Shown: in pieces, positions 13,280 through 32,000 of the stretch
How positions within the stretch are numbered: the stretch's first letter is position 1
How the letters are laid out: every line of letters begins with the position of its first letter
Assembly (NCBI GenBank): GCA_016699145.1
Contig: CP064962.1
Span: 510,001 to 542,000, forward strand
Direction: 5' to 3'
Source of the DNA: Candidatus Saccharimonadota bacterium
Lineage (GTDB): Bacteria; Patescibacteriota; Gracilibacteria; UBA1369; 2-02-FULL-48-14
Length of the DNA: 32,000 bases
Translations under genes and position numbers: made by a program
The notes under the pieces: model-generated
What the model was told of the DNA's origin: nothing
The model's input: the letters and a program-made list of their open reading frames with translations, nothing else
Databases searched by the model: none

Positions 13280-15805
13280 ATGGATCTAGAACGTTTCACC
13301 ACCAAAGCCGCTGAGGCCCTGGATCAAACAGGCAAACTCGTACAAAAACGCGGGCATGCCTCCCTCACTCCTCTGCACCTTCTTTACACTCTGCTCATTC
13401 AGGAGAGCGGCATCGTACCTGGACTTTTCAAGAGCATGGACCTCGATGTGAATGCTCACTTAAAACGTCTCGAAGAAACCTTCAAAGCCTATCCAAAAAT
13501 CAGTGGCAATTATCGCTCACAAGTCTCCCCAGAGCTCGCAGAGGTTCTGGAACGAGCTGAAAAAGAAGCGCGCGACCTTCAAGATGAATACATCAGCACC
13601 GAACATCTTTTGCTCAGTCTGCTCAAAGACCGTAGCGTGACTCCCATTTTGCCCCTCAAACGAGAAATGGTTCTCGAAAAATTGAAAGCCTATCGAGGCA
13701 GCCAACACGTCACCGACCAAGACCCAGAAAACAAATATCAAGCCCTCGCAAAATACACCATCGATTTCACAAAGCTCGCTCGCGATGGCAAGATCGATCC
13801 CGTGATTGGACGCAACGAAGAGATTCGCCGCGTGATGCAAATTTTATCTCGACGCACCAAGAACAACCCCGTGCTCGTGGGCGAACCTGGAACGGGTAAA
13901 ACGGCCATCGTCGAAGGCCTGGCCAAAAAGATCATCGATGGAGATGTGCCCGAAAGTTTGAAGCGAAAACAATTATTAGGCCTAGACTTAGGTGCCTTGC
14001 TCGCAGGCACCAAATTCCGGGGTGAATTTGAAGAACGTCTCAAGGCCATCATTAAAGAAATTGAAAACTCTGACGGGCAAATCATCCTTTTCATCGACGA
14101 ACTTCACACCATCGTGGGTGCCGGCGCCGGTGAAGGTTCCACCGATGCGGGCAACTTACTGAAGCCAGCCCTCGCTCGTGGACAACTTCGCACCATCGGT
14201 GCAACGACTTTAAAAGAATATCGAAAGTACATTGAAAAAGACGCCGCGCTCGAGCGTCGCTTCCAGCCCGTGATGGTGGAAGAGCCATCACAAAAAGACG
14301 CGCTATCCATTCTGCGCGGCATCAAAGAAAAATACGAAGTACACCACGGCGTGAAGATCCGCGACAACGCCCTCGTTGCCGCAGTAACGCTGTCGAGTCG
14401 CTACATCACCGACCGCTTTTTGCCCGACAAAGCCATCGATCTCATGGATGAAGCCTGCTCTGTGATTCGCATTGAAAACGACAGCATGCCCACAGAAATC
14501 GATCAGCTGCAAAGACAAATTCGCCAACTTGAAATCGAACGTGAAGCACTTAAAAAAGAAGCCGATCCCGAATCAAAAAACCCAGATACCTCTGCGCAAA
14601 AACGCCTCAAAACTTTGGAAAAAGACCTCAGCGAATCTAAAGAGAACCTCAGTGTTTTAGAAACAAAATGGCGCAGCGAAAAAGAATTGATCGACCAACT
14701 CAAAGGCATCGATAAACAAATCGACGAGCTCAAAATGGAGGCCCAAACACTGGAGCGTCAAAGCGACCTCGCACGTGTCGCTGAAATCAAATACGGAAAG
14801 ATACCTGAACTCCAAAAACAAGCCGAAGAATCCAAGGAAAAACTTCGTGCTCGCCAAGGCGAAGGTCACCTGCTCCGCGACGAAGTGACGGAAGAAGACA
14901 TCGCTGCCGTAGTGTCGCGTTGGACCGGAATTCCAGTGAGCAAAATGCTCAGCACAGAAGCTGAAAAATTAACTCACATGGAAGAGGAACTCGCACATCG
15001 TGTGATCGGACAAAAAGAAGCGATCGGCGCCGTATCAAACGCTGTGCGCCGCAGCCGCGCCGGCATCCAAGACGAGAATCGCCCCATTGGTTCTTTCATT
15101 TTCCTCGGCCCTACCGGCGTGGGTAAAACCGAGCTCGCCAAAGCTTTGGCTGAAAGCCTTTTCGACGACGACAAACGCATCCTCAGACTCGACATGTCCG
15201 AATACATGGAGAAGCATTCCGTCGCTCGGCTGGTCGGCTCACCTCCAGGTTATGTAGGCTACGAAGAAGGCGGACAACTCACCGAAGCATTGCGTCGTCA
15301 CCCCTACTCCGTGCTGCTCTTCGATGAAATCGAAAAAGCACACCCAGATGTCTTCAACATCCTTTTACAAATGCTCGACGACGGCCGCCTCACCGACAGC
15401 AAAGGCCGCACCGTGGACTGTCGCAACACCGTCATCATTCTCACGTCAAACTTGAAACAGGACCAACTCAAGACAGCCTTCCGTCCAGAATTCTTAAACC
15501 GTATCGACAGTGTCATCGTCTTCCACAAACTCGACCCCGAGCACATCGGTGAGATTGTCAAACTTCAACTTAAAAAAGTGGCGGACCGTCTCGCTCGCCG
15601 TGGAATCACACTCAAACTTTCTAAGACAGCCCTCGCCCATTTTGCCGAAGCCGGCTATGACGAAGACTTCGGGGCTCGCCCGCTCAAACGCCTCATTCAA
15701 AACGAACTGCTCGACGAACTTTCCCTCCGCATTTTGGAAGGCAAAATCAAAGAAGGATCAAACGTGGAAGTGGAGTACAAAGATGGAAGCATCCAGCTCA
15801 GCTAG
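13280..15805 (+). CDS. clpB: ATP-dependent chaperone/disaggregase ClpB
   Basis: Clp N-domain, two AAA+ modules (Walker A GEPGTGKT and GPTGVGKT) and a long coiled-coil middle domain. I chose the start [14 protein letters not shown] at 13280. The track's start at 13256 lies inside CIRCE. Confidence 0.95.
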
Positions 15806-18800
15806 AGGTTACTCACACCAGGGCCTCCGTTATTGCGAGGAGCACCTTCTCCTCCAATGTTGGGGTTTTCAGCCTGTAATCTGCGAGCACTGTCAGTCAA
15901 ACTAACCGATTGAGCCTTGAGCTGAGCAGCCATTTCTTTAGCCGTGAGTTCTTTAGGTTTCATCTCGACTTTTCCAAGGATTTGGTCTCTCAAAATCACG
16001 CTCTTTTGAACACCACTGCCTATCACTTCACCGTTCGCAGCACTTTTAGCGCCGTGAGCAGGAGTTTTATATTCCACGGAAATCGCTCCATTGGGGGTAG
16101 TGGGATTGTAGGTTTCAGTCACTCGAGCTTTCACCCAAGTTCCTAGCTTCATGTAAGGCAGACGAATGCGGATTGTATCCCCTCGACTGAGTTCCGAGAC
16201 TTGAACTTCACGCACCGTCTCTTCCATCGTGGGACGAGAAGCAGGTCCGGCAGGAGGGGTTGGCTTTGAGTTAGGTGCCGTTGGAGGCACTGATGCCGGT
16301 GCAGCAGGTTCAGAAGCAGGCGCTGAAGATTCGGTGGGGTTTTGAGCTTTAGGTGCTTGAGTGTTGAGCTTGGGCCCAGAAGCAGATGTGGAAATTTTAG
16401 TGGATGACTGGTCTGGAAGTACTGGAGTATTGAGCTTGGGCCCAGAAGCAGATGTGGAAATTTTAGTGGACGACTGGTCTGGAAGTACTGGAGTATTGAG
16501 CTTGGGCCCAGAAGCAGATGTGGAAATTTTAGTGGACGACTGGTCTGGAAGTACTGGAGTATTGAGCTTGGGCCCAGAAGCAGGGTTGAACGTATTTGGA
16601 GCTACACCAGTTGAAACTTTATTGAAGGCTTGGGCTCCAGCTGGTTTAGGGCTGAATTTTGGTATAGATGTAGGAGCAACCGGAGGCATACCGCCTGGAG
16701 CTTGCGGAATGGCAGGAACCGCTTGCACATGAGCAATCGCGCGAAGTCCCAGTACCACTCCTGTGGTGTGCATGAGGTCACGCCAGAAGTTGGGATCACG
16801 CATGGCTTCCGCTTCATTAGCAGAAAGCAATCCTGCTGCGTCACCCAAAGAAAGTTGTCCAGCACTGAGAGCGTGCATGGCAAGTAGCTCCGAGCCCACT
16901 TCTCCAGCAAGCACTCCGGCATAAGCTGCGCCTCCAGCATTTCTTCCAGCGACATTTAGACGTCCCAAGAAACGACTGGCAGGTGCCGTGGCTCGTTGAA
17001 GCAGAGAAAACCGAGTGAGTGTTTGCCCATTATTAAGGGCTTGAGCTCCAGCGGTTTGTCCCCGAGTGAATTGTTGAACCTTCCCAAGCAAATACAAAGT
17101 GCTTGCCATGGTTCCCACTTGATAAAGAGCATCCCGTGCCCCCTCGGCAGTCGTGGGATTGAGGGTCGTTCCATGCAACAAATGCTGGGCTTCTACAAAA
17201 AAGGCAGCATGACCAATGTTACGTCCAGCAAGTGCCAAGCGTCCACCCGTATAAGCATTCGCAGCAGACAACTGTGTCATCAGACCTGTAGCTCCCGCTC
17301 TTCCTACCGCTCCTGTCAGGTGAGCTCCGGCGGCGGTGCTATTCAAGGCAGCACCAGCCTGTCCTCCCAGTTGAGCAAAAGGGAGCCCCGTGCCAAAAGC
17401 ACGCGTTCCAAGTCCAGCGATGCGAGCGCCACCCGCAGCTGCAGCCGCTCCGGAAGCAAGCCCCGCAGTAGCGGCTTGTATGACAGCAATTTCAGCCAGA
17501 GTTTTAGCGACAGAAGCAGCCGTATCGGTGTTTTCTTCTTTCAAGTCAAATGCTCCCCACCCTTCAGTTTGAGCCAACGCACCCATGGCCGCAATTTGAC
17601 GAGTGCTGAAGCCATCTTTCACCATTTGCTCAATGTCCATGGATCCAGCAGTCGTCTCTCCATAAGCCCCAAAAGGCAAGATCAAAGACGAAAGAGGGCT
17701 ACTGAAATACTTATCATAAATCGGCTTGGCCCGTTCCGCTTGAAGCTGAATTCTCGCACGGTTCTCGAGCACTAGACGAACAGTGGTATCTACATAATCC
17801 ACTTTATCTTTGTAGAAGCCAGTATTATCCGGTTTTTGCATTCTTTGGAAATCGGCATCCTCGAGGCCTTTTCCCTTTAAAGCTACATAAAGTCCCGCAC
17901 GAATTTGTCCTCCTTCTTCTTCATCCAACTCACCAAAACGCGCCTTTATTTGTTCCTTCGTGGCCTCTGAACCCGAAAGTTTACCATCAAGGGCGCTCGT
18001 GCACAGCTCACGAAGTTCATCGTAATGCTTGGTGTTTTTGGCAGCCATGATTTTAGCCAAGAACAATTGCTCAGCCCCACCCAATTTGTGATCTTTTTCA
18101 AAAGGAGGACTCAAAAGAATGTCGTCAGAAGACTCGATGAGCCCCTTTCTATTTCCATAAGCTCGCGCTCCAACTCCCTGCATTTTTTCAGAAATAAAAG
18201 AGGAGCCGCCCAGAAAGGCCGCTTGATCCCCCCTAAAAGCATTCCAAATGTTGTTGGCGCCCAAATTTTCGTCTCCATTTTGATACTCTTCAAACAGACG
18301 GAACTCCTCTTCATGGGCAATAAAATACTTTTTGAAATCCAATTTTTGACCCGGTTTCAACTCAAAAACAGAACCCAAAGGATCGGAGACCTGATCGGAC
18401 CCAGCAAGATTCTCAGGGAGCCGAATTTCAGTCAAAGCTCCATTTTTCAGCTGCTCATAATAATGCTTGATGGGATTTTCCACAGTCTTCCCATCTAAAA
18501 TATCTTGGGGGTACTGATAAGCAATGGCCAAGCGAAGCGCCTCGAGCACATGCCAAGAAGCCACATACACTTCTTCATCGGTGTCGTTCCAATTGCTGAA
18601 CATCTCTTGCCATTCTTTACGACTGGTACCCTCTTGAATGTGTTGATCCAAATCTTCTTGATCATCATCATCAAAATTTGCGGTCATCACCGAAAAGGCC
18701 GTACCCACCATGTCAGAAGCCAAAGACCGTCGAGTGAAAAATTCCAAAGAACGTTTGTTGGATTCAAACCAAGGCTGAAGTTCAGAGGCAAGTTCCTGAG

Positions 18801-20205
18801 GATCAATGGCACTCAACTGTTCAAATAAATAAGGCAAAACCTTAGAGTCACCGGTTTCATGCTGCCCCTGAAGGAGAGCACTCTGCAGGCGCCAAAAAGC
18901 TTGAGTGGAGGCGTTCGCCAAAGGATCTTTTTCCATCTCTTTCATCTGTCGAAGCACTCCATTCTTGGTTTTTGTGGACAATTCTTGAAGCATTTGCATG
19001 GCCTTAGCAGGATCTCGTTGTCCAAGTTTTTCAAGAATAGCTCCCAACACCAGTTCTTGATCCTCAGCATTGAGTTGAGACAGTCCTTCAAAAAAAGGAT
19101 CAATACCAAAGGTTTCGTAATCCTTCAAGAGTTCCTGAGTGACAACGCCGAATTCAACACCTTCATCAAACTGACGTGAACTAGGAATCAAATTGCCATT
19201 TTCTGTACGAGAGTAAACATAGGACTCTTTAGTACCCCTCAATGGCAGGGGTTGAACGCCTGGCTCGGGATTCGATTCTGACTCATTACCTGGCTGAGAA
19301 TCAGGTTGAGTTCCGGAATCAGGATTCGCACCATCAGGGTTTTCACCTGGAGCAACAGGAGGCACAGGAGCTACTGGAGGCGCTTCCTTTTCAAAATCAA
19401 TAATCACCAAATTTCCCTGACATCCATTTTTCATTTGAGCATAAATACGCCCCTCTTCCCAACGGAAAGCTACATTTTTAAGTTCAAGCTTGCTGCGCAT
19501 TTCTTCGGGAATGGAGAGTAAATCTCCTCCCACCGTCACACGGAAGTTTTTGACCGCACGGCCCTTGAGTTCACGAGCAAGTCCCTCACCGGCATTCAAA
19601 TCATCCACAGTGGAAGCTTCCATTTCAGCCGCAATTTTTTGACGAACCTCCTTGCTTTTTAGAGTTTCTCCATCCAAATGCATAGACCCCATCAGCGCCT
19701 CAGCAGGGGAATCTTCCCCAGAATTTACCAGCTGAGAAGCCATCATGAGCTCAACCATTTCAGATTTTTGAACGGGCATTTTACTGGGATCTTTGCCAAG
19801 CAAATCAATCAAAGTGGCAGTCACTTCCGTTCGCCAAATCTGACGGGCATAAACCAAGGCACGTTCCTTTTTTTTGTTTCCTTTGTTTTCAATCAAAACA
19901 CTGGCCAAAGCTCGACGCTGGTCGGCATTTGGGAACAGTTTCTGACTGAGTTCTGAGTTTCCTCCCCACGCTTGCCACGCATTCGAAAGATCAGCCCACT
20001 CTTTAGGGGTCAACTTTCCCAGAAAAGCAGGGTCTTTCAATTGCTCTTTCACGGACTTCAAAGCCTTGTCCACAATGCCAAAAGTACGCTCCATTTCTTT
20101 TTTCTCAATCAACCCTTTTTGAGCCCGCTTTTCATAACGATCCAGCATTTTCCCAACAGGTTCACTACTGGTCTCTTTTAAGGATTTTAAGACTTCAGAA
20201 GCCAT
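15802..20205 (-). CDS. Orphan giant protein (1467 aa), no recognisable family
   Basis: This long uninterrupted ORF is the only plausible frame here. There is no N-terminal signal peptide. Protein order is: helical/acidic N-terminal part; Pro/acidic linker ([18 protein letters not shown]...); Gly/Ala-rich hydrophobic region, roughly residues 905-1190 (DNA about 16640-17500); P/S/T-rich 22-aa repeats; a small C-terminal beta-like domain. Confidence 0.8.
16364..16584. repeat. 66-bp tandem repeat, 3 full units plus a 23-bp partial, inside the giant ORF
   Basis: The unit is TTGAGCTTGGGCCCAGAAGCAGATGTGGAAATTTTAGTGGAYGACTGGTCTGGAAGTACTGGAGTA. Copies differ at a single synonymous T/C position. The unit encodes [22 protein letters not shown] x3. 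Confidence 0.95.
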
Positions 20206-20278
20206 ACGTTTTTTCGTTTTAATCTCGTAATTTTAGCACAATTTTGCCTTTTTTACAAGGAGCTACTAAAATAACGAC

Positions 20279-20677
20279 ATGAATAAAAAATCCATCCGCT
20301 GGCAACAACGTTACGAAAATTATATTCGAGCCCTGAAACAATTGGAAGAAGCGGCAGAAATCATCCAGCCCAGCCCTGTAGAACAAGCAGGACTCATCCA
20401 GTTTTTTGAAATGACTTTTGAATTGGCCTGGAAAACCTTAAAAGATCACCTGGAGAGCAAAGGGCAGCTTCTCGTAAGCCCCAGAGATGTGCTGAAACAG
20501 GCTTTTCAAAACGGCCTCATTCAAGATGGAGAGCAATGGCTAAAAGCTCTGCAAAGTCGAAACCTAACGGCCCATCTCTACGACGAAAAAAAAGCTCTAG
20601 AATTGTTTTCTGAAATCAAAACCAACTACCTTCCTATTTTGATCGATTTAAGAAATCATCTTAAAAATGAACTCTAA
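20279..20677 (+). CDS. HEPN-domain protein, HI0074-type nucleotidyltransferase substrate-binding family (putative HepT-like toxin)
   Basis: 132 aa, helical, with the Rx4H HEPN motif (SRNLTAHLYD). It resembles the HI0074-like family in the region IQFFEMTFELAWKTLKD. Confidence 0.8.
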   Translation: MNKKSIRWQQRYENYIRALKQLEEAAEIIQPSPVEQAGLIQFFEMTFELAWKTLKDHLESKGQLLVSPRDVLKQAFQNGLIQDGEQWLKALQSRNLTAHLYDEKKALELFSEIKTNYLPILIDLRNHLKNEL

Positions 20678-20987
20678 AAAAAACCCCCCGCCCGGATTGA
20701 CAGAAAAAGAGTTGAACGAACTTAAAAGCTGTTTCGAAAAACACAAAGACCTAGATGAAGTGGTCTTGTTTGGATCGCGTGCCATGGGCAATCACAAACC
20801 CGGCTCCGATGTAGACTTACTGCTACGCGGCGTCCTCGAAGAAAACACTCGATTTCAAGTCCACGACTATTTAGAAGAAGAATCCTTACTCCCCTACTTT
20901 TTTGACATTCTTACAGAAAAGGACCTGAGTAACCCTGCCCTTAAAAAACACATACAAGAATTTGGGGTTGTCATTTATTCGAGATGA
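20667..20987 (+). CDS. Minimal nucleotidyltransferase (MNT, HI0073-like; putative MntA-like antitoxin)
   Basis: 106 aa with the NTase motif LFGSRAMGNHKPGSDVDLLL (GSx10-SDxD pattern). It overlaps the upstream HEPN ORF by 11 bp. Confidence 0.8.
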   Translation: MNSKKNPPPGLTEKELNELKSCFEKHKDLDEVVLFGSRAMGNHKPGSDVDLLLRGVLEENTRFQVHDYLEEESLLPYFFDILTEKDLSNPALKKHIQEFGVVIYSR

Positions 20988-21055
20988 TTCGCTATCTCTA
21001 ACAAAAAACCCCAGGTCGACTTAGGTCTTCCCAGGGCTTTTTGTGATTTCCCCTT

Positions 21056-21072
21056 AACCCCATAAAATGGGT
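21056..21072. terminator. Small AT-rich hairpin between two convergent genes (weak bidirectional terminator candidate)
   Basis: AACCCAT-aaa-ATGGGTT is a 7-bp stem. It lies 12 nt beyond the FtsL-like stop and about 70 nt beyond the MNT stop. Confidence 0.3.
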
Positions 21073-21084
21073 TTCATTTGTACT

Positions 21085-21444
21085 TCAATACGCAAATTCC
21101 GTATCGTTCTTAGCCACCACGGTGATCGGCAAAACATAGGTCACTTCATTTTGAGTGGGCTTCACCATGTCTAAAGTAGCGGCTTCAATCATTTCCATGG
21201 AACGAGCACGAAGCGAAAGCATATCCGTCACTTCTCCATCCTCCACCAAAGCCTGACGATCCTGTTCCAAATCATTGAGCGTGTAACCGTTCATCGCATT
21301 GCCGTTGAGCATGGTCAAAGAAACCGTTCCCATTCCCACCATGGCCAAGACCAAGAGCGTTCCAACAGAAGCCAAACTCAGCTTTTGATGACGCAGAAAC
21401 AAGTTCTGAAGGGAAGCGGGCAGATAAGAAAGCAGAGCAGGCAT
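21085..21444 (-). CDS. Small bitopic membrane protein, FtsL-like by position (immediately downstream of rsmH)
   Basis: 119 aa with a single TM helix (LASVGTLLVLAMVGMGTVSL) followed by a short coiled region. The call rests on position in the dcw-type order rsmH-ftsL, with no diagnostic motif. Confidence 0.45.
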   Translation of the reverse strand: MPALLSYLPASLQNLFLRHQKLSLASVGTLLVLAMVGMGTVSLTMLNGNAMNGYTLNDLEQDRQALVEDGEVTDMLSLRARSMEMIEAATLDMVKPTQNEVTYVLPITVVAKNDTEFAY

Positions 21445-21469: not shown

Positions 21470-22456
21470 TCAATGGGACAATTTTTCAGCGGCGCGTAAG
21501 ACGGCGCTGCGAGCTCGCGAATTGCGAGCCACTTCTTCCTTTGAAGGAAAGATCGGCTTTTTAGTCAAGAGGGAAAGGCTCTTCAATCTAAGGACTCTGG
21601 CTCCAAATAGGTCAGTCGGATCGCGGAGGTCTGTGGCAAGTTGCTTGAAGGTCTGCTTAACAAAGCGATCTTCAAGAGAGTGGTAACTCAGCACAACCAC
21701 GCGTCCGTGAGGAGCTAAAAGCTCAATCGCTTGATTGAGACCAAGCTCCAGGGCCATAAGTTCCTCATTCACCTCCATACGGAGGGCCTGAAACAATTGG
21801 GTTGCCCGGTGTCGACCGGGTTTTCCTCTCCCAAGTACACGAGTGACAAAGTCTGCGAACTGCAAGGTCGTCGTAAACGGCGTCTTCTTGCGGTCGGAGA
21901 CAATGGCGGCAGCCAATTTGCGAGAAGCACGCTCTTCACCAAGGTGAAAGAACACATCTGCAAGCTCACCTTCACTGTACGTGTTGAGCACATCGGCGGC
22001 CGTTTTGGTCTGGCGTGGATCAAAACGCATGTCCAGCGGGCCTTCTCTTAAAAAGGAGAAGCCACGGCCGGCGTCGTCGACGTGTGGGGAGGAGAGTCCT
22101 AGATCAAAGAGAATAGCATCCACCCGGGATGCCCCTTCCCTCTTGAGCCGATCTGTCAAAGAGCTGAATGAGTCGTGGAAAATCGTGAATTTTCCTCCGA
22201 CTTCCTTTGCCACTTCTTCGAGTCGCTTTTTGGCGACTTTGAGATTCCGTTCATCCTTCTCAAAAGCGTAGAGTTGCCCATTCGGTGCGATGCGCTTCAG
22301 GATCTCAGAGGAGTGTCCCCCGAGCCCCAAGGTGCAATCGACAACCGTCATCCCGGGTCTTAAGTTCAGAAGTTCCAGGGACTCCGTGAGAAGCACTGAA
22401 TCGTGCTGAGGAGCGCCTTTCCCTTCCGCCTTAGACTCTGGATAAATTTGTTGCAC
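21470..22456 (-). CDS. rsmH: 16S rRNA (cytosine1402-N4)-methyltransferase
   Basis: Motifs present: HDSVLLTESLELL, VVDCTLGLGGHS, AILFDLGLSSPHVD, GPLDMRFD, VLSYHSLEDR and ARSAVLRAAEK. GTG start. Confidence 0.92.
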   Translation of the reverse strand: MQQIYPESKAEGKGAPQHDSVLLTESLELLNLRPGMTVVDCTLGLGGHSSEILKRIAPNGQLYAFEKDERNLKVAKKRLEEVAKEVGGKFTIFHDSFSSLTDRLKREGASRVDAILFDLGLSSPHVDDAGRGFSFLREGPLDMRFDPRQTKTAADVLNTYSEGELADVFFHLGEERASRKLAAAIVSDRKKTPFTTTLQFADFVTRVLGRGKPGRHRATQLFQALRMEVNEELMALELGLNQAIELLAPHGRVVVLSYHSLEDRFVKQTFKQLATDLRDPTDLFGARVLRLKSLSLLTKKPIFPSKEEVARNSRARSAVLRAAEKLSH

Positions 22457-27122: not shown

Positions 27123-30100
27123 ATGTCACGCCTCCCCTTCTTTAATAAAGTCCTCAAAGCCCTGTTCCTGCTGAGTATAGCGGTCTTTTTTCAATGGCAA
27201 ATGACGCAGAACGCTTCTGCGGCCACTCGAACCTGGGATGGCGGAGGAAGCACCAACAACTGGAGCGACTGTGTGAACTGGTCCAATGACACGTGTCCCA
27301 CCACAGCGGATGTGGCCACTTTCGACGCGACCTCTGTAAAAAATGCCACCCTCGACAATGGTTTCACGACCGGCGTCACCACCTTCAACATGAATACGGG
27401 TTACACCGGAATCATCACTCAAGGGCGCTCTTTCGTAGTGAGTGGAAACACCACCCTCGCTTCTGGAACTTTCAATGGAAACTCTGACGCCCTCACTTTC
27501 ACAGGAAGTTTTGGCCAGAGCGGAGGGGCCTTCAACGGCGGCGCTCAAAACGTGCTACACACGGGTGCTTTCACCATAAGTGGAGGTGCGTACACAGCCA
27601 GTTCTAGCACAACCACTTTTGCAGCTGCTTTCACCCACACCATAGGAGGAACCTTTAGTCACAATAACGGTACCGTCGTCTTCACAGGAGCCGCGGCAAC
27701 TATCAATGTCGCCACTACAGAAACCTTTCAAAACCTACAAGTCAATAAGAACAATGCTGTAAACTTAACGATCTCTTCCGGGGATACCTTAGTAGTTAAC
27801 GACACGACCACTCTCACCAATGGAGGTTTGGGTGGAACCGGAACCTTGAATGTGGCCAAATCCATTTCTGTGAATTCAGGATGGGATGGTTCCACAACTG
27901 GAACCATCAGCATCACTGGAACAGATGTTCAATCTTTATCCTTAAACGGAGACCAAGCTCGCCTTGCCGGAACCATCACTCTCAACAACCCGAACTTCAC
28001 CATCAATGGAACAGGATCAGGGACTTTGAACTTCAATATTCTCAATCTTCAAGCAGGTATCCTGGATGCCACAGGTTTCAGCCTAAGTGTGGCTAGCACC
28101 TTCTCTCAAAGCGGCGGAACTTTCACCGGAGGCTCAGGCACTGTGACACATACCGATGACTTCACCCTCAGCGCCGGCACCTACACCGCCACTTCTGGCA
28201 CCACCGATTTCGCAGCCGGCTTCACTCATACCGCCGGAGGAACGTTCAGCCACAATGAAGGCACCGTGGTTTTCTCGGGAGGAGCAGCAACCGTCAATGT
28301 GGCCACGAGTGAAACTTTTAAGAACTTGCAAATCAATAAAAACAACGCCACCAACTTAACCATTTCAGCCGGAGACACTTTGATTGTGGGTGCCACGACC
28401 ACTCTCACCAATGGAGGTTTGGGTGGAACCGGAACCTTGAACGTGGCCAAATCCATCTCTGTCGATTCAGGGTGGGATGGCTCAACCAATGGAACCATCA
28501 ACATCACTGGAACAGACGTTCAATCTTTATCCCTGAATGGAGACCAAGCTCGTCTCGCGGGAACCATCACCCTCAACAACCCGAACTTCACCATCAATGG
28601 AACAGGATCGGGTACTTTAAACTTCAATATTCTCAATCTCCAAGCAGGTACCGTGAATGCCACGGGTTTCAACCTCACTGTGGCCAGCACCTTCTCTCAA
28701 TCCGGGGGAGTCTTTACTGGAGGAAGCGGCACCATCACTCATACCAATAACTTCACTCTTTCCGGTGGGACTTACACTGCCAGCTCCGGAACCACCAACT
28801 TCGCAGGGGATTTTACTCGTACTGCAGGAGGAACTTTCACTCATAATAATGGAAGCATCGTCACAAATGGCGGCGCAAGCGCTTGGGATGTGACGGGTAC
28901 AGAAACCCTTCACAATCTTACGATCAATACCACAGGAACCAGTATCCTCACAGTGGTCAGCGGAGACACTTTAGTAATCGAGGGCACTTTGCTCCTACAA
29001 AATGGTCAATTCAGCGCGGGAACTTTAAGCGTGCAAGGAGACATGGTTGAAGAAGGCACTTGGGATGGAGGCACTTTAGGAGGCGAAATAAAAGTGGAAG
29101 GTACAGGTACACAAACGGTAACTTTGAATGCAGGAAGTATAGAACCCGCAAACACCTTCACCATCAACAACAGTGACGCCACGGTCAACGCACCGGGCAG
29201 TGGCAGCGCCTACTTCTGGCTCTTCAACCTTTCCGCAGGGACCTTCAATGGAAACGGCGCAACAATCACTATAGACAACACCTTCACTCAAAGCGGCGGG
29301 ACTTTCAATTCGAGCACAGCGAGCCTCAGTTTTTCAGTCAGTATGACTCAAAGTGGAGGAGCCTTTAATGGCAGCTCAGGAACCGTCACCTATGCCGCAG
29401 GTTTCACTCTCTCGGCAGGCACCTATACGGCCAGTTCCGGAACCACCTACTTTCAAGGAAATTTCACTCACACCGCAGGAGGAACCTTCAGCCACAATAA
29501 CGGCACCGTAGAATTCAACACCGCGGGCGACAGCACTTACAACGTAGCTAGCTCAGAGACCTTCAACCACGTGACTCTCAATAAAGCAGGTTCCAATGCG
29601 ACCATCTCTTCAGGAGACACCTTCATCGTATTGGGAAACCTAACTTTAAGCGATGGACGTTTCAATACTGGAACTTTGGAGATCTATGGCGACGTAAGCG
29701 TCGGAGCTGCTTACGATGCAGCCAGTTCTCCCATGATTTTTAGAGGATCCGCAACGCAAATCTTCACCCTGGGAATAGCAAACAGCATCAATGGGGACCT
29801 CACCATCAACAAAAATGGCGGGTCTGTGCAACAAAGTGGCGCTTTGATTTTAGATGCAAATTCTCAAGACCTCCTCATCACATTAGGCACTTACAACATC
29901 AATGGATCCGACTTAAGCGTGAATGGCACGTCGGGAACAATGGTCGTACAAAACGGTGGAATTTTCCAACTCCAAGGAGGGGAATCCATCACATTGAACG
30001 GAGGAAATCCAAGTTTACAAACAGGCAGCCTTGTGAAATACAACGGCGCGGCTGGCCCTTACACTCTTAAGGATTTCACCTACAAATCCTTAGAAATTGC

Positions 30101-32000
30101 GGGCGGAGCCAGTTCCATCTTTGCCTTGCCAGCCACCCTAAGCATCGGTGAAAACTTAAGCATCACTTCAGGAATTTTGCGCTTGGCAGGCAATGCACTC
30201 ACCGTGACGGGAACTTTTTCCAACACAGGCACCTTGCAATTGCAAGGGGGCGAAAGCGTAACTTTGACCAACGACAGCAATTCCGGAACAGTGGAATATG
30301 TGGGTGATGGAGACAGTGGAGCCGATGACTACACTTTAAAAAATTGGACTTATTACCATCTCAGCATCGCCACCACCGATGCCAACGATTCCATCACGGC
30401 TTCCACTTCCCCTGTCGACATCAATGGAAATCTTTCAATTTCGAATGGAACCTTCGTGGCCCCCACGGTCTTGAATCTCAGCGGAAATTTTGCACGCAGC
30501 GGAGGCACATTCAACCCCAATAGTGGAACCGTGGTTTTGAATGGCGGCAACCAAAGCATCAGCGGAACCCTCACTTTCAACAACCTCAGCAAAATCACCA
30601 GCTCAAGCGTCACTCTCACCTTACCCGCCAGTACCACTCTCACCATTACCGGCACCTTGACGCTCAAAGGAGTTTCCGGCCAGCTCCTCGCCCTTCGCAG
30701 CAGTTCCAATGACATGCAAGCCGTAATCGACGCACAAGGTTCACGCATCGTGGAATACCTCGACATAAAAGACAACAGCAACATCAATGCCACCGCGATT
30801 TCTTGTGGAAATTGTGTCAACAGTCTCAACAACAACGGCTGGAATTTCAACATCGCCAACATCAGCGTCAGTGCCATTTCAGGGAACACCACCGAAGCAG
30901 GCGGCACAGCCACTTTCACCGTAGTGCTCGACACCGAACCCAGCGCCGACGTTAGTTTCAATATCAGCAGCAGCGATACTAGCGAAGGCACCGTGTCCCC
31001 CTCCTCTCTCACTTTCACATCCGAAAATTGGGATACGCCTCAAACCGTCACCGTAACGGGAGTGAACGATGCTTTTGTGGACGGAGACATCAGCTTCAAC
31101 ATTGTGAATGGCAGCATCACTTCAGCAGATGGCGAGTACAACGGCTTGAATCCCAGCGACGTGAGTGTAACGAACACAGACAACGACATCATAGGCCTCA
31201 CCATCGTTGAATCCGGCGGTAACAGCGCTGTGACCGAAGGGGGAGCCACCGATTCTTACACCGTGGTTTTAAACACCGAACCCACCGACGACGTGACCGT
31301 GAGTTTCACCGTAGGTTCCCAAATTTCTTTGAGCAGTCCGAGCTTCATTTTCACCCCAGAAAATTGGGACGATCCGCAAACCCTCACTATCACCGCCGTC
31401 AATGACGCCATTGCCGAAGGAGCTCACTCCACCAACATTTCTCAAACAGTGTCCAGCAGCGACCCTCAATACGATGGCCTGGGTCTGAGCAGTATCAGCG
31501 TGGCCATCACCGATAACGACACCGCGGGCCTCACTGTCAGCGCCATTTCGGGCAACGTTTCTGAAGCCGGAACCACCGCCACTTTCACCGTAGTGCTCAC
31601 CTCTCAACCCATCGCAAACGTCAGCTTCAGCGTGATGAGCAGCGACACCACCGAAGGCACCGTATCCCCCAGCTCTCTAACCTTCACTTCCGAAAATTGG
31701 AGCACCCCCCAAACGGTCACCGTAACAGGGGCCAATGATTTTGTGGTGGATGGAAGCATTGCCTTCAGCATCGTGAATGGAAGCACCACTTCCGACGACT
31801 TGAATTACAGTGGCATAAATGTCAACGACGTGAGCCTCAACTGCAGCGACAACGACGTAGCCGGCTTCAGCGTCAGCGCCATTTCGGGCAACGTTTCTGA
31901 AAGCGGTAACACCGCGACCTACACTGTGGTCTTGATTTCAGAACCCACTGACGACGTGAGCTTCGACGTAGAAAGCAGCGACCTCAGCGAAGGCACTGTC
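27123..32000 (+). CDS. Secreted giant surface protein (partial; open to the window end): beta-helix-like repeats followed by Calx-beta-like modules
   Basis: The ATG at 27123 opens a frame that runs uninterrupted for 1626 codons to position 32000. It is absent from the ORF track because it has no stop in the window. Signal peptide: MSRLPFFNKVLKALFLLSIAVFFQWQMTQNASA. Gly/Thr/Asn-rich repeats (GGTFxGGSGTVTHT..FTLSAGTYTA.SGTT.F...FTHTAGGTFSHNNGTVVF) are followed, from about 30850, by roughly 110-aa modules (VSAISGN..EAGGTATFTVVL...PQTVTVTG.ND..VDG...DND). Confidence 0.85.
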   Translation, partial: MSRLPFFNKVLKALFLLSIAVFFQWQMTQNASAATRTWDGGGSTNNWSDCVNWSNDTCPTTADVATFDATSVKNATLDNGFTTGVTTFNMNTGYTGIITQGRSFVVSGNTTLASGTFNGNSDALTFTGSFGQSGGAFNGGAQNVLHTGAFTISGGAYTASSSTTTFAAAFTHTIGGTFSHNNGTVVFTGAAATINVATTETFQNLQVNKNNAVNLTISSGDTLVVNDTTTLTNGGLGGTGTLNVAKSISVNSGWDGSTTGTISITGTDVQSLSLNGDQARLAGTITLNNPNFTINGTGSGTLNFNILNLQAGILDATGFSLSVASTFSQSGGTFTGGSGTVTHTDDFTLSAGTYTATSGTTDFAAGFTHTAGGTFSHNEGTVVFSGGAATVNVATSETFKNLQINKNNATNLTISAGDTLIVGATTTLTNGGLGGTGTLNVAKSISVDSGWDGSTNGTINITGTDVQSLSLNGDQARLAGTITLNNPNFTINGTGSGTLNFNILNLQAGTVNATGFNLTVASTFSQSGGVFTGGSGTITHTNNFTLSGGTYTASSGTTNFAGDFTRTAGGTFTHNNGSIVTNGGASAWDVTGTETLHNLTINTTGTSILTVVSGDTLVIEGTLLLQNGQFSAGTLSVQGDMVEEGTWDGGTLGGEIKVEGTGTQTVTLNAGSIEPANTFTINNSDATVNAPGSGSAYFWLFNLSAGTFNGNGATITIDNTFTQSGGTFNSSTASLSFSVSMTQSGGAFNGSSGTVTYAAGFTLSAGTYTASSGTTYFQGNFTHTAGGTFSHNNGTVEFNTAGDSTYNVASSETFNHVTLNKAGSNATISSGDTFIVLGNLTLSDGRFNTGTLEIYGDVSVGAAYDAASSPMIFRGSATQIFTLGIANSINGDLTINKNGGSVQQSGALILDANSQDLLITLGTYNINGSDLSVNGTSGTMVVQNGGIFQLQGGESITLNGGNPSLQTGSLVKYNGAAGPYTLKDFTYKSLEIAGGASSIFALPATLSIGENLSITSGILRLAGNALTVTGTFSNTGTLQLQGGESVTLTNDSNSGTVEYVGDGDSGADDYTLKNWTYYHLSIATTDANDSITASTSPVDINGNLSISNGTFVAPTVLNLSGNFARSGGTFNPNSGTVVLNGGNQSISGTLTFNNLSKITSSSVTLTLPASTTLTITGTLTLKGVSGQLLALRSSSNDMQAVIDAQGSRIVEYLDIKDNSNINATAISCGNCVNSLNNNGWNFNIANISVSAISGNTTEAGGTATFTVVLDTEPSADVSFNISSSDTSEGTVSPSSLTFTSENWDTPQTVTVTGVNDAFVDGDISFNIVNGSITSADGEYNGLNPSDVSVTNTDNDIIGLTIVESGGNSAVTEGGATDSYTVVLNTEPTDDVTVSFTVGSQISLSSPSFIFTPENWDDPQTLTITAVNDAIAEGAHSTNISQTVSSSDPQYDGLGLSSISVAITDNDTAGLTVSAISGNVSEAGTTATFTVVLTSQPIANVSFSVMSSDTTEGTVSPSSLTFTSENWSTPQTVTVTGANDFVVDGSIAFSIVNGSTTSDDLNYSGINVNDVSLNCSDNDVAGFSVSAISGNVSESGNTATYTVVLISEPTDDVSFDVESSDLSEGTV
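27522..28703 (+). repeat. Two tandem copies of a 591-bp (197-codon) unit inside the surface-protein gene, followed by more diverged copies
   Basis: Copy A (27522-28112) starts GGAFNGG and copy B (28113-28703) starts GGTFTGG. Long near-identical stretches occur, e.g. ACCACTCTCACCAATGGAGGTTTGGGTGGAACCGGAACCTTGAA at 27803 and 28394. Antisense shadow ORFs sit at the same offset (27916 vs 28507). Confidence 0.9.

Follow-up and report, generated by a model that had tools for sequence, protein, structure and literature searches.

A module-shuffling family of giant proteins in Peregrinibacteria and Gracilibacteria-type bacteria with a possible role outside the producing cell

The window analyzed here is a 32,000-nucleotide stretch (contig CP064962.1, positions 510,001 to 542,000) of a complete 1.34 Mb genome placed among the Gracilibacteria by GTDB. 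Its reverse strand carries a gene for a 1467-residue protein, here called P0001 (15802..20205, (-)), which starts with ATG and reads through without interruption according to the open reading frame (ORF) list and the translation. A sequence search of its own genome returns the gene itself at 100% and no paralogue. At 15802-15805 the letters CTAG end both P0001 and the forward-strand clpB gene, which bears out the shared stop codon proposed in an earlier reading of the bare sequence (the original prediction). The GC content of the gene, 0.45-0.53, is at the local level of the genome. A consensus scan finds a promoter-like site, TTGTAA-17-(TG)TAAAAT, at 20230..20258 (-); it matches the consensus at 9 of 12 positions, has an extended -10 TG and ends 24 bases 5' of the ATG. 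Sequence comparison places P0001 in a polymorphic, module-shuffling family confined to Peregrinibacteria and Gracilibacteria-type bacteria within the candidate phyla radiation (CPR). By the same comparisons the family is rare, has not been described so far and is built on domains without recognized relatives.

The family libraries offer little on P0001. Pfam gave a 10-bit noise match only, and NCBIfam and PADLOC gave none. Three members of the P0001 family have no match in PHROGs at E ≤ 0.1. Sequence profiles of the whole family, of its N-terminal domain and of 22 distant members found only coiled-coil and low-complexity noise among PDB sequences. The statement that P0001 contains no recognized domain therefore holds in all of these searches, and neither Pfam nor the PDB offers a known family that covers the protein. 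P0001 also lacks a signal peptide, as had been predicted, because no 19-residue Kyte-Doolittle window exceeds 1.0 ahead of residue 895. The module order read from the translation is broadly right as well: a charged helical head is followed by a Pro/acidic linker, a mixed-helical middle, a Gly/Ala-rich region, a P/S/T-rich linker and a tail. The N-terminal 880 residues are acidic, with a net charge of about -37.

P0001 was originally regarded as an orphan. It is not, because a profile of its conserved core, searched against 1.84 billion representative proteins, found 99 relatives, 50 of them at E ≤ 1e-30. The named records among these relatives come from Peregrinibacteria/Peribacteria and Gracilibacteria. 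ClpB says little about the taxon, with about 55-58% identity to proteins of many phyla. Complete Peribacteria genomes are reported to contain many large unexplained proteins (PMC4736985). Of the 205 genomes of the order, 23 have the family, which is spread unevenly, occurring in 8 of the 11 genomes of one bacterial family and in 2 of the 56 of another; three of the five other species of the genus have it. The orphan label thus gives way to an accessory family with a patchy distribution.

Hidden Markov models (HMMs) of three core parts, the N-terminal domain (ND), the mid domain and the Gly/Ala-rich region (GA), were run over 101 proteins and made the modularity of the family visible. Sixty-one of these proteins have the ND only, 20 have mid and GA without the ND, 9 combine all three like P0001, and some are fragments. 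Mid and GA always occur together, and the ND is a free module. Twelve of the mid-GA proteins without the ND are headed instead by a second, unrelated N-terminal domain (P0011-P0016, P0019-P0021, P0024, P0031 and P0060, all representative proteins). This second domain occupies the first 240-370 residues, contains the motif '...LRKLRHEIEQGKI...', has no signal peptide and substitutes for the ND before mid and GA. Conservation falls steeply along the protein. Compared with six relatives, the ND of P0001 is 53-65% identical, mid and GA are 30-55% identical, and the values drop to 13-29% for the Pro linker and 7-21% for the tail. Many lineages have an intact ORF. At one locus of another bacterial family (L095, G031:C16, 2703-6739, (-)), the homologue is split into a 390-residue ORF with the ND and PPQT repeats and an 870-residue ORF with mid, GA and tail, and the break falls just past the Pro-rich linker. 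The split may be natural, a frameshift or an assembly error.

The ND (residues 1-275, 19381..20205, (-)) is the best defined of these modules. It carries the motifs YARQIWRTE and IYAQMxNGCxGNLVIID and was aligned over 30 sequences, drawn from the window and from loci recovered with pattern searches. With the same alignment, AlphaFold2 models the ND with a mean predicted local distance difference test (pLDDT) of 95 and a predicted template modeling score (pTM) of 0.92. In this model, ~200 residues form a helical bundle, and a five-stranded beta subdomain comes after it. Foldseek detects nothing of similar fold, its best E being 0.32 (TM < 0.25) against the PDB and 0.44 against BFVD; in these two sets, neither the solved structures nor the predicted viral proteins match the ND as modeled. 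Of the 71 representative proteins that contain the domain, 63 have it at their implied N-terminus. Its near-invariant residues are R125, R188, M195, G226, A256, M258, N260, G261, C262, G264, N265, V267 and I269. Cys262 (codon at 19420..19422, (-)) is nearly invariant in the alignment and sits in the beta-hairpin turn N-G-C-x-G-N, and all 63 ND copies that are complete at the C-terminal end have the pattern N-x-C-x-x-N. A Cys-His protease dyad was considered and is unlikely, since distant members do not conserve His176 of the local 'MHLD' motif.

The proteins headed by the ND suggest where it may act. Pro-rich or short-repeat linkers usually follow it, and the 50 residues after the domain contain 17% Pro on average. 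Among 26 ND-only proteins, Pfam identifies LysM (2), Amidase_2 (2), SLT (2), PG_binding_1 (2) and YkuD (1). P0037 and P0038 have the order ND, linker, SLT, Amidase_2 and LysM. P0073 combines the ND with a sub-threshold YkuD match (22.9 bits vs a Pfam cut-off of 23.4 bits, E 1.4e-4). P0102 joins the ND to leucine-rich repeats (LRR), Amidase_2 and LysM according to precomputed Pfam, and the ND-LRR-amidase gene lies between RuBisCO and hflX. The substrate of SLT, Amidase_2, LysM, YkuD and PG_binding_1 domains is peptidoglycan, outside the cytoplasmic membrane. The ND proteins with these wall domains, however, have no hydrophobic segments at all (highest Kyte-Doolittle value 0.7-1.4), no signal peptide and no transmembrane (TM) helix. 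They would either exit the cell independently of an N-terminal Sec or Tat signal, or be stored lysins. This pairing of wall-active domains with the lack of an export signal is the chief argument that ND-headed proteins may act outside the producer.

Behind the ND of P0001 lies the Pro/acidic low-complexity linker, recovered by translation and composition (27% Pro) at residues ~273-320 (~19246-19389, (-)), where it had been predicted. As a module it is set at residues 276-320 (19246..19380, (-)), and AlphaFold2 gives it a pLDDT of 25-31. The mid domain (residues 321-880, 17566..19245, (-)) was defined by AlphaFold2 and family conservation. It is mostly helical, carries a net charge of -32 and is modeled as helices at pLDDT 45-84. 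In ~37 representative proteins it occurs with the ND, with the second N-terminal domain or without either. The pLDDT values of linker and mid domain come from a model of the 1158-residue core, which was built from a 5-sequence alignment with a mean pLDDT of 50 and was used for secondary structure and for the folding of the ND. Foldseek found no match for this core model.

The GA region (residues 881-1160, 16726..17565, (-)) was delimited by composition and family alignment and is always joined to the mid domain. Over residues 881-1165 (~285 residues) it contains 22% Ala, 14% Gly and 13% Leu, which agrees with the Gly/Ala-rich composition first noted. It opens with a conserved hydrophobic helix at residues 903-926 (17428..17499, (-)), recognized by a Kyte-Doolittle scan and by the pattern VAEIxxIExxTAGxGxxxAGAxGA. 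The pattern, with its small-xxx-small (glycine-zipper-like) spacing, is kept across 28 sequences, and the peak hydropathy of the helix is 1.54 in P0001 and 1.6-2.37 in relatives. Beyond it, GA is amphipathic and contains Arg, and its conserved polar and motif positions are H999, E1005, H1011, LGKxQQFxRG, EAMxxPxx and AGVVLGLR. The original prediction described all ~290 residues as hydrophobic and glycine-zipper-like. The hydropathy scan leaves segment ~903-926 as the sole candidate for a membrane helix, and it is this helix whose spacing answers to the zipper description. The internal duplication proposed for the region was rejected as a feature of the family: it amounts to 15 matching residues in compositionally biased sequence, and the aligned relatives do not conserve the second copy.

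The flanks of the conserved helix are asymmetric. On its N-terminal side, 15 residues contain on average 3.0 D/E and 1.4 K/R and are thus acidic, and the 15 residues on its C-terminal side are basic, with 2.5 K/R and 0.5 D/E (n=26). If the helix anchored P0001 in the membrane of its producer, the basic C-terminal flank and the positive-inside rule would place ~900 N-terminal residues outside, and would do so without a signal peptide. Sec/YidC insertion is not known to place such long signal-less N-termini outside. A better fit to the asymmetry would be a helix that enters a target membrane from the outside, or one that is not a membrane helix at all.

The C-terminal part of P0001 is its most variable. 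The fast-evolving P/S/T-rich linker (residues 1161-1325, 16231..16725, (-)) contains 21% Pro, 16% Ser and 10% Thr. Within it, Tandem Repeats Finder (TRF) reports a repeat of 66 bp in 3.4 copies with 98% matches at 16359-16583, which corresponds to the 22-residue repeat seen earlier in the translation and forms a near-perfect in-frame variable-number tandem repeat (VNTR). The C-terminal domain (residues 1326-1467, 15805..16230, (-)) was delimited by family alignment. Its core, from about residue 1341, is common only to P0001, P0002, P0003 and P0005. Across the 205 genomes of the order we found one further match only, and a borderline one (G100, E 0.009, with an in-frame stop). The original prediction saw in this domain a possible small beta barrel of the SH3/KOW/Tudor type, and a phmmer search of PDB sequences found no match to it. 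In the family as a whole, the tails past GA span 0 to ~1800 residues and include Ala/Glu/Arg coiled coils, a small beta-rich domain, a weak GT2-like region and, in one case, a Metallophos domain. The GT2-like tail, carried by P0004 and L002 and not by P0001, is a weak lead below the Pfam cut-offs (Glycos_transf_2, 17.0 vs 23.3 bits; Glyco_tranf_2_3, 16.2 vs 27 bits).

These features can be brought together in one reading, to which we give a probability of roughly 40%. In this reading P0001 would be a polymorphic, membrane-targeting protein that is delivered by a route other than Sec and directed at a host or neighbor cell. The ND would be its delivery or docking head and would carry the attached parts out of the cell independently of Sec and Tat. 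An export role is suggested for the ND because the same domain heads soluble, signal-less proteins that act only on peptidoglycan. The mid-GA module might insert into a membrane, or oligomerize in it, by means of the conserved helix. The two conserved Glu, together with the acidic N-terminal and basic C-terminal flanks, would suit conditional insertion. The variable tail may then be the source of binding or enzymatic specificity, and the likely target would be the envelope of a host or neighbor cell of this presumably episymbiotic bacterium. The original prediction named P0001 as a candidate novel effector, envelope or host-interaction protein, with Gly/Ala segments that recall membrane-inserting modules. 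The modularity, the signal-less relatives with wall domains, the conserved helix and the accessory spread are in favor of that proposal, and the lack of linked secretion and immunity genes is against it. It is also conceivable, though doubtful, that the ND is the docking domain of an undescribed Sec-independent export or cell-to-cell route, specific to Peregrinibacteria and Gracilibacteria, which would send wall enzymes and P0001-like giants to hosts.

Several observations count against a host-directed, membrane-targeting protein. GT2-like and Metallophos tails are typical of cytoplasmic enzymes, and the family-library searches recognize neither a toxin nor an enzyme in the tail of P0001 itself. 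The helix of P0001, at 1.54, stays below the usual hydropathy threshold of 1.6 and contains Glu and Gln, so it could be a buried core helix; GA as a whole has an AlphaFold2 pLDDT of 20-39 and no confident model. At the ~20 loci examined, no linked secretion machinery, chaperone or immunity gene recurs, and the neighbors of the family are housekeeping genes (clpB, trxB-like, fumarase, PAP2, RuBisCO, HflX). The genome that encodes P0001 has no WXG100 protein, and its sole FtsK is an ordinary single-domain protein of 630 residues. Finally, near-threshold VirB4-like matches occur in 8 of the 23 family-positive genomes vs 53 of the 205 overall, which at this sensitivity gives no sign of an association with the family.

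Part of this evidence would fit a different protein, namely a large cytoplasmic scaffold or enzyme in which helix 903-926 is buried in a soluble, Gly/Ala-rich helical domain. H999, E1005, H1011, K1042, Q1044/45 and R1048 would then form an active or binding site, and the ND-hydrolases would be stored lysins freed on lysis. Such a protein would be expected to lack a signal peptide, and none is found anywhere in the family. The acidic N-terminal 880 residues, the enzyme-like tails, the two Glu in the conserved helix, its sub-threshold hydropathy in P0001 and the housekeeping genomic context all agree with it. Yet LysM, SLT, Amidase_2 and YkuD domains on the same ND have no substrate in the cytoplasm, and in distant members the helix reaches 2.0-2.4 with its small-xxx-small pattern. 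Tail swapping, VNTR linkers and patchy spread would be unusual for a housekeeping enzyme, and the Pfam, NCBIfam and PDB searches point to no enzyme family. We regard a cytoplasmic role as unlikely.

No known secretion route can be assigned to the ND, which has no match in Pfam or NCBIfam, no fold match and no secretion genes nearby. A type VII secretion system (T7SS) was rejected, as the genome has neither WXG100 proteins nor an EssC-type ATPase with several FtsK domains, and Pfam finds no LXG or WXG100 match in P0001. Type III secretion system (T3SS) or flagellar export was rejected as well, as there is no FHIPEP in the genome. An immunity gene directly downstream is also lacking: clpB converges on the P0001 stop, and no small gene recurs at the ~20 loci. 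A monoderm-type type IV secretion system (T4SS) is a candidate export route for the family. The genome has a VirB4-like match that is borderline at the threshold. Patescibacteria are reported to carry widely a monoderm-type T4SS without relaxases, which is perhaps repurposed (PMC12102498).

Among known systems, the family most resembles polymorphic toxins such as LXG, MafB, TANFOR and Rhs/CdiA, which likewise join a conserved N-terminal domain through a linker or central region to exchangeable C-terminal modules (PMC5555719, PMC7073777). The likeness extends to peptidoglycan-degrading modules, to an accessory and patchy spread and to a steep drop in conservation from head to tail. A conserved head with varied, exchangeable tails defines polymorphic toxins in the sense of Zhang et al. 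2012, and the P0001 family has this arrangement. However, the ND is related neither in sequence nor in fold to the LXG, MafB, TANFOR or Rhs/CdiA heads. In addition, the family has no linked secretion system and no downstream immunity gene, usually occurs as one copy per genome, and ends, in P0001 itself, in a tail that is not recognizable as a toxin. Judged from these comparisons, the family is most like polymorphic toxins and effectors but is not classed among them, as no linked immunity gene and no assignable secretion route were found.

In AB-toxin translocation regions and pore-forming colicins, a hydrophobic helical segment lies among amphipathic helices, and acidic residues control insertion. 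Compared by name with these proteins, P0001 has a similar Gly/Ala helical region with one strongly conserved hydrophobic small-xxx-small helix that carries conserved Glu residues, placed between an N-terminal region and a binding-like C-terminal tail. In contrast to them, P0001 has no Pfam match to toxin translocation or pore families at E ≤ 1, and the AlphaFold2 pLDDT of its GA region is 20-39, too low for a structural model.

The wall hydrolases of monoderm T4SS offer a third comparison. Hydrolases of the PrgK, TraG and TcpG type have an N-terminal TM helix or signal and are encoded inside T4SS operons. Like the two-domain enzymes of the PrgK, pIP501 TraG and TcpG/CwlT type, P0037 and P0038 pair SLT with a second hydrolase and carry wall-binding repeats, and they come from a monoderm-type lineage in which T4SS genes are reported to be common (PMC12102498). 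The ND proteins differ in having no TM helix or signal and in lying outside T4SS operons, and P0001 itself has no hydrolase domain.

This resemblance also bears on a possible origin in mobile elements. Tape-measure proteins and conjugation wall proteins are long and helical, have Gly/Ala-rich hydrophobic segments and sometimes contain lysin domains. The length of P0001, its helicity and its Gly/Ala hydrophobic segment would all be expected of a mobile-element or phage structural protein left behind in domesticated or decaying form, either tape-measure-like or derived from a monoderm conjugation wall hydrolase or channel. A toxin-antitoxin pair adjoins the gene, and the ND relatives with SLT and amidase are similar to VirB1-like hydrolases, two-domain enzymes found in monoderm T4SS (PMC12102498). 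On the other hand, there is no PHROGs match at E ≤ 0.1 and no BFVD fold match for the ND, and the ~20 loci have no tail, capsid, relaxase or T4SS genes. The GC content does not depart from the local level, the ORF is intact in many lineages, and the ND is conserved at 53-65%. We consider such a remnant highly improbable, and a phage tape measure protein in particular was rejected on the PHROGs and BFVD results and the housekeeping neighbors.

The genes on the far side of P0001 raise the question of whether the protein serves the envelope of its own cell. rsmH (21470-22456, (-); Pfam Methyltransf_5, E 6e-100) and an FtsL-like gene (21085-21444, (-)) lie 5' of it. The latter encodes 119 residues with one TM helix and has a weak NCBIfam match (FtsL_Actino, E 0.0099); its orthologue in G008 matches FtsL at E 1e-5. 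In the genus, the order is rsmH, a single-TM gene of 104-119 residues and the giant gene, with clpB convergent. The giant gene is inverted in G008, where it adjoins the ftsL-like gene. P0001 might thus be an envelope or division-site protein of its own membrane, bitopic by way of helix 903-926, that organizes wall synthesis or remodeling near the divisome. The ND and mid domain would lie on one side of the membrane and the rest of GA, the P/S/T linker and the C-terminal domain on the other, and the ND would dock the various wall-active modules at one and the same site.

In agreement with this, the gene follows rsmH and the FtsL-like gene in every locus of the genus, the ND relatives carry wall-active domains, and MraY, a PBP5-type carboxypeptidase and LytR are encoded in the wider neighborhood. 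P/S/T linkers are common in wall-spanning segments, and P0001 has one. In addition, a DUF1290 gene lies ~4 kb from a family member in another bacterial family. Two genomes of the same genus, G002 and G005, nevertheless keep rsmH and the ftsL-like gene without the giant gene. The slot is filled there by four unrelated genes on the same strand (L183 2721-9235 in G005, L184 2590-9010 in G002), which encode a protein with a thioredoxin domain, one that is weakly transglutaminase-like and two of ~650-740 residues without assignment. In other bacterial families the neighbors are unrelated as well and include trxB-like, fumarase, PAP2, HAD, SDR, deaminase, trigger factor and MoxR-like/transglutaminase genes. 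The adjacency to rsmH and ftsL is therefore positional only, because the slot varies within the genus and the neighbors differ elsewhere. Membership in the dcw cluster is not supported, since the rsmH-ftsL-like adjacency is limited to the genus and family of P0001, and presence in 23 of 205 genomes would be odd for a core division factor. Two further points count against an own-membrane anchor: by the positive-inside rule ~900 N-terminal residues would come to lie outside with no signal peptide to take them there, and the ND-hydrolase proteins lack any TM helix. We regard the envelope role as possible, though on the unlikely side. Conservation of the neighborhood, which the original prediction proposed to check, holds for rsmH, the ftsL-like gene, the giant gene and clpB at the loci of the genus that have the giant gene, and other neighbors take their place in other bacterial families.

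Large proteins of CPR/Patescibacteria are mostly unannotated, and the means by which epibionts breach or exploit their hosts are largely unknown. In place of one 'hypothetical protein' there is now a defined family that has three reusable modules, a high-confidence ND model and a single invariant cysteine. The fusions of the ND to SLT, amidase, LysM and YkuD would imply signal-less export and provide a handle on a possible lineage-specific delivery signal. They also yield a shortlist of wall hydrolases and membrane-active proteins as candidates for action on a host. If P0001 instead belongs to the envelope of its own cell, the same modules would identify a lineage-specific envelope organizer.

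Between the ftsL-like gene and P0001 lies a HEPN (NTase_sub_bind)/MNT toxin-antitoxin pair (20279..20987, (+)), identified by Pfam and NCBIfam. The HEPN-type gene matches NTase_sub_bind at E 5e-39, and the MNT-type gene matches Polbeta / NTP_transf_2. The divergent adjacency to P0001 that was originally reported is correct, but a functional meaning for it was not borne out. The pair is missing from the orthologous loci L091-L093, and L090 has DUF3800, an 87-residue ORF and PIN in its place. The pair is therefore an insertion without a functional tie to P0001. Its GC content is 0.41, vs ~0.49 around it. The spacer between the ftsL-like gene and P0001 has the appearance of a landing site for small modules of the toxin-antitoxin or defense kind.

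Further details of the neighborhoods are recorded here. The FtsL-like gene stands directly after rsmH with no ftsI following, and the transpeptidase genes are 120-170 kb away. A terminator-like hairpin lies 3' of the FtsL-like gene at ~21020-21060. The DUF1290 gene mentioned above is located ~4 kb upstream of the family member at L130 3393-3770 and L173 3276-3656 (-). DUF1290 is the family of the B. subtilis Sbp in the division cluster, and its proximity may be coincidental. At L172 (818-7961, (+)), genes for a 1295-residue AAA_5 (MoxR-like) ATPase and a 1082-residue transglutaminase-core/VWA protein directly precede the giant gene on the same strand, and a DUF5671 gene follows it; this gene set may form an operon. 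A second giant ORF in the window (27123-32000, (+)) was rejected as a paralogue of P0001 (BLASTP E > 1) and has no Pfam match. It leaves the window at its 3' end, encodes more than 1626 residues and has a repetitive 'GG.F / T.S.G' composition.

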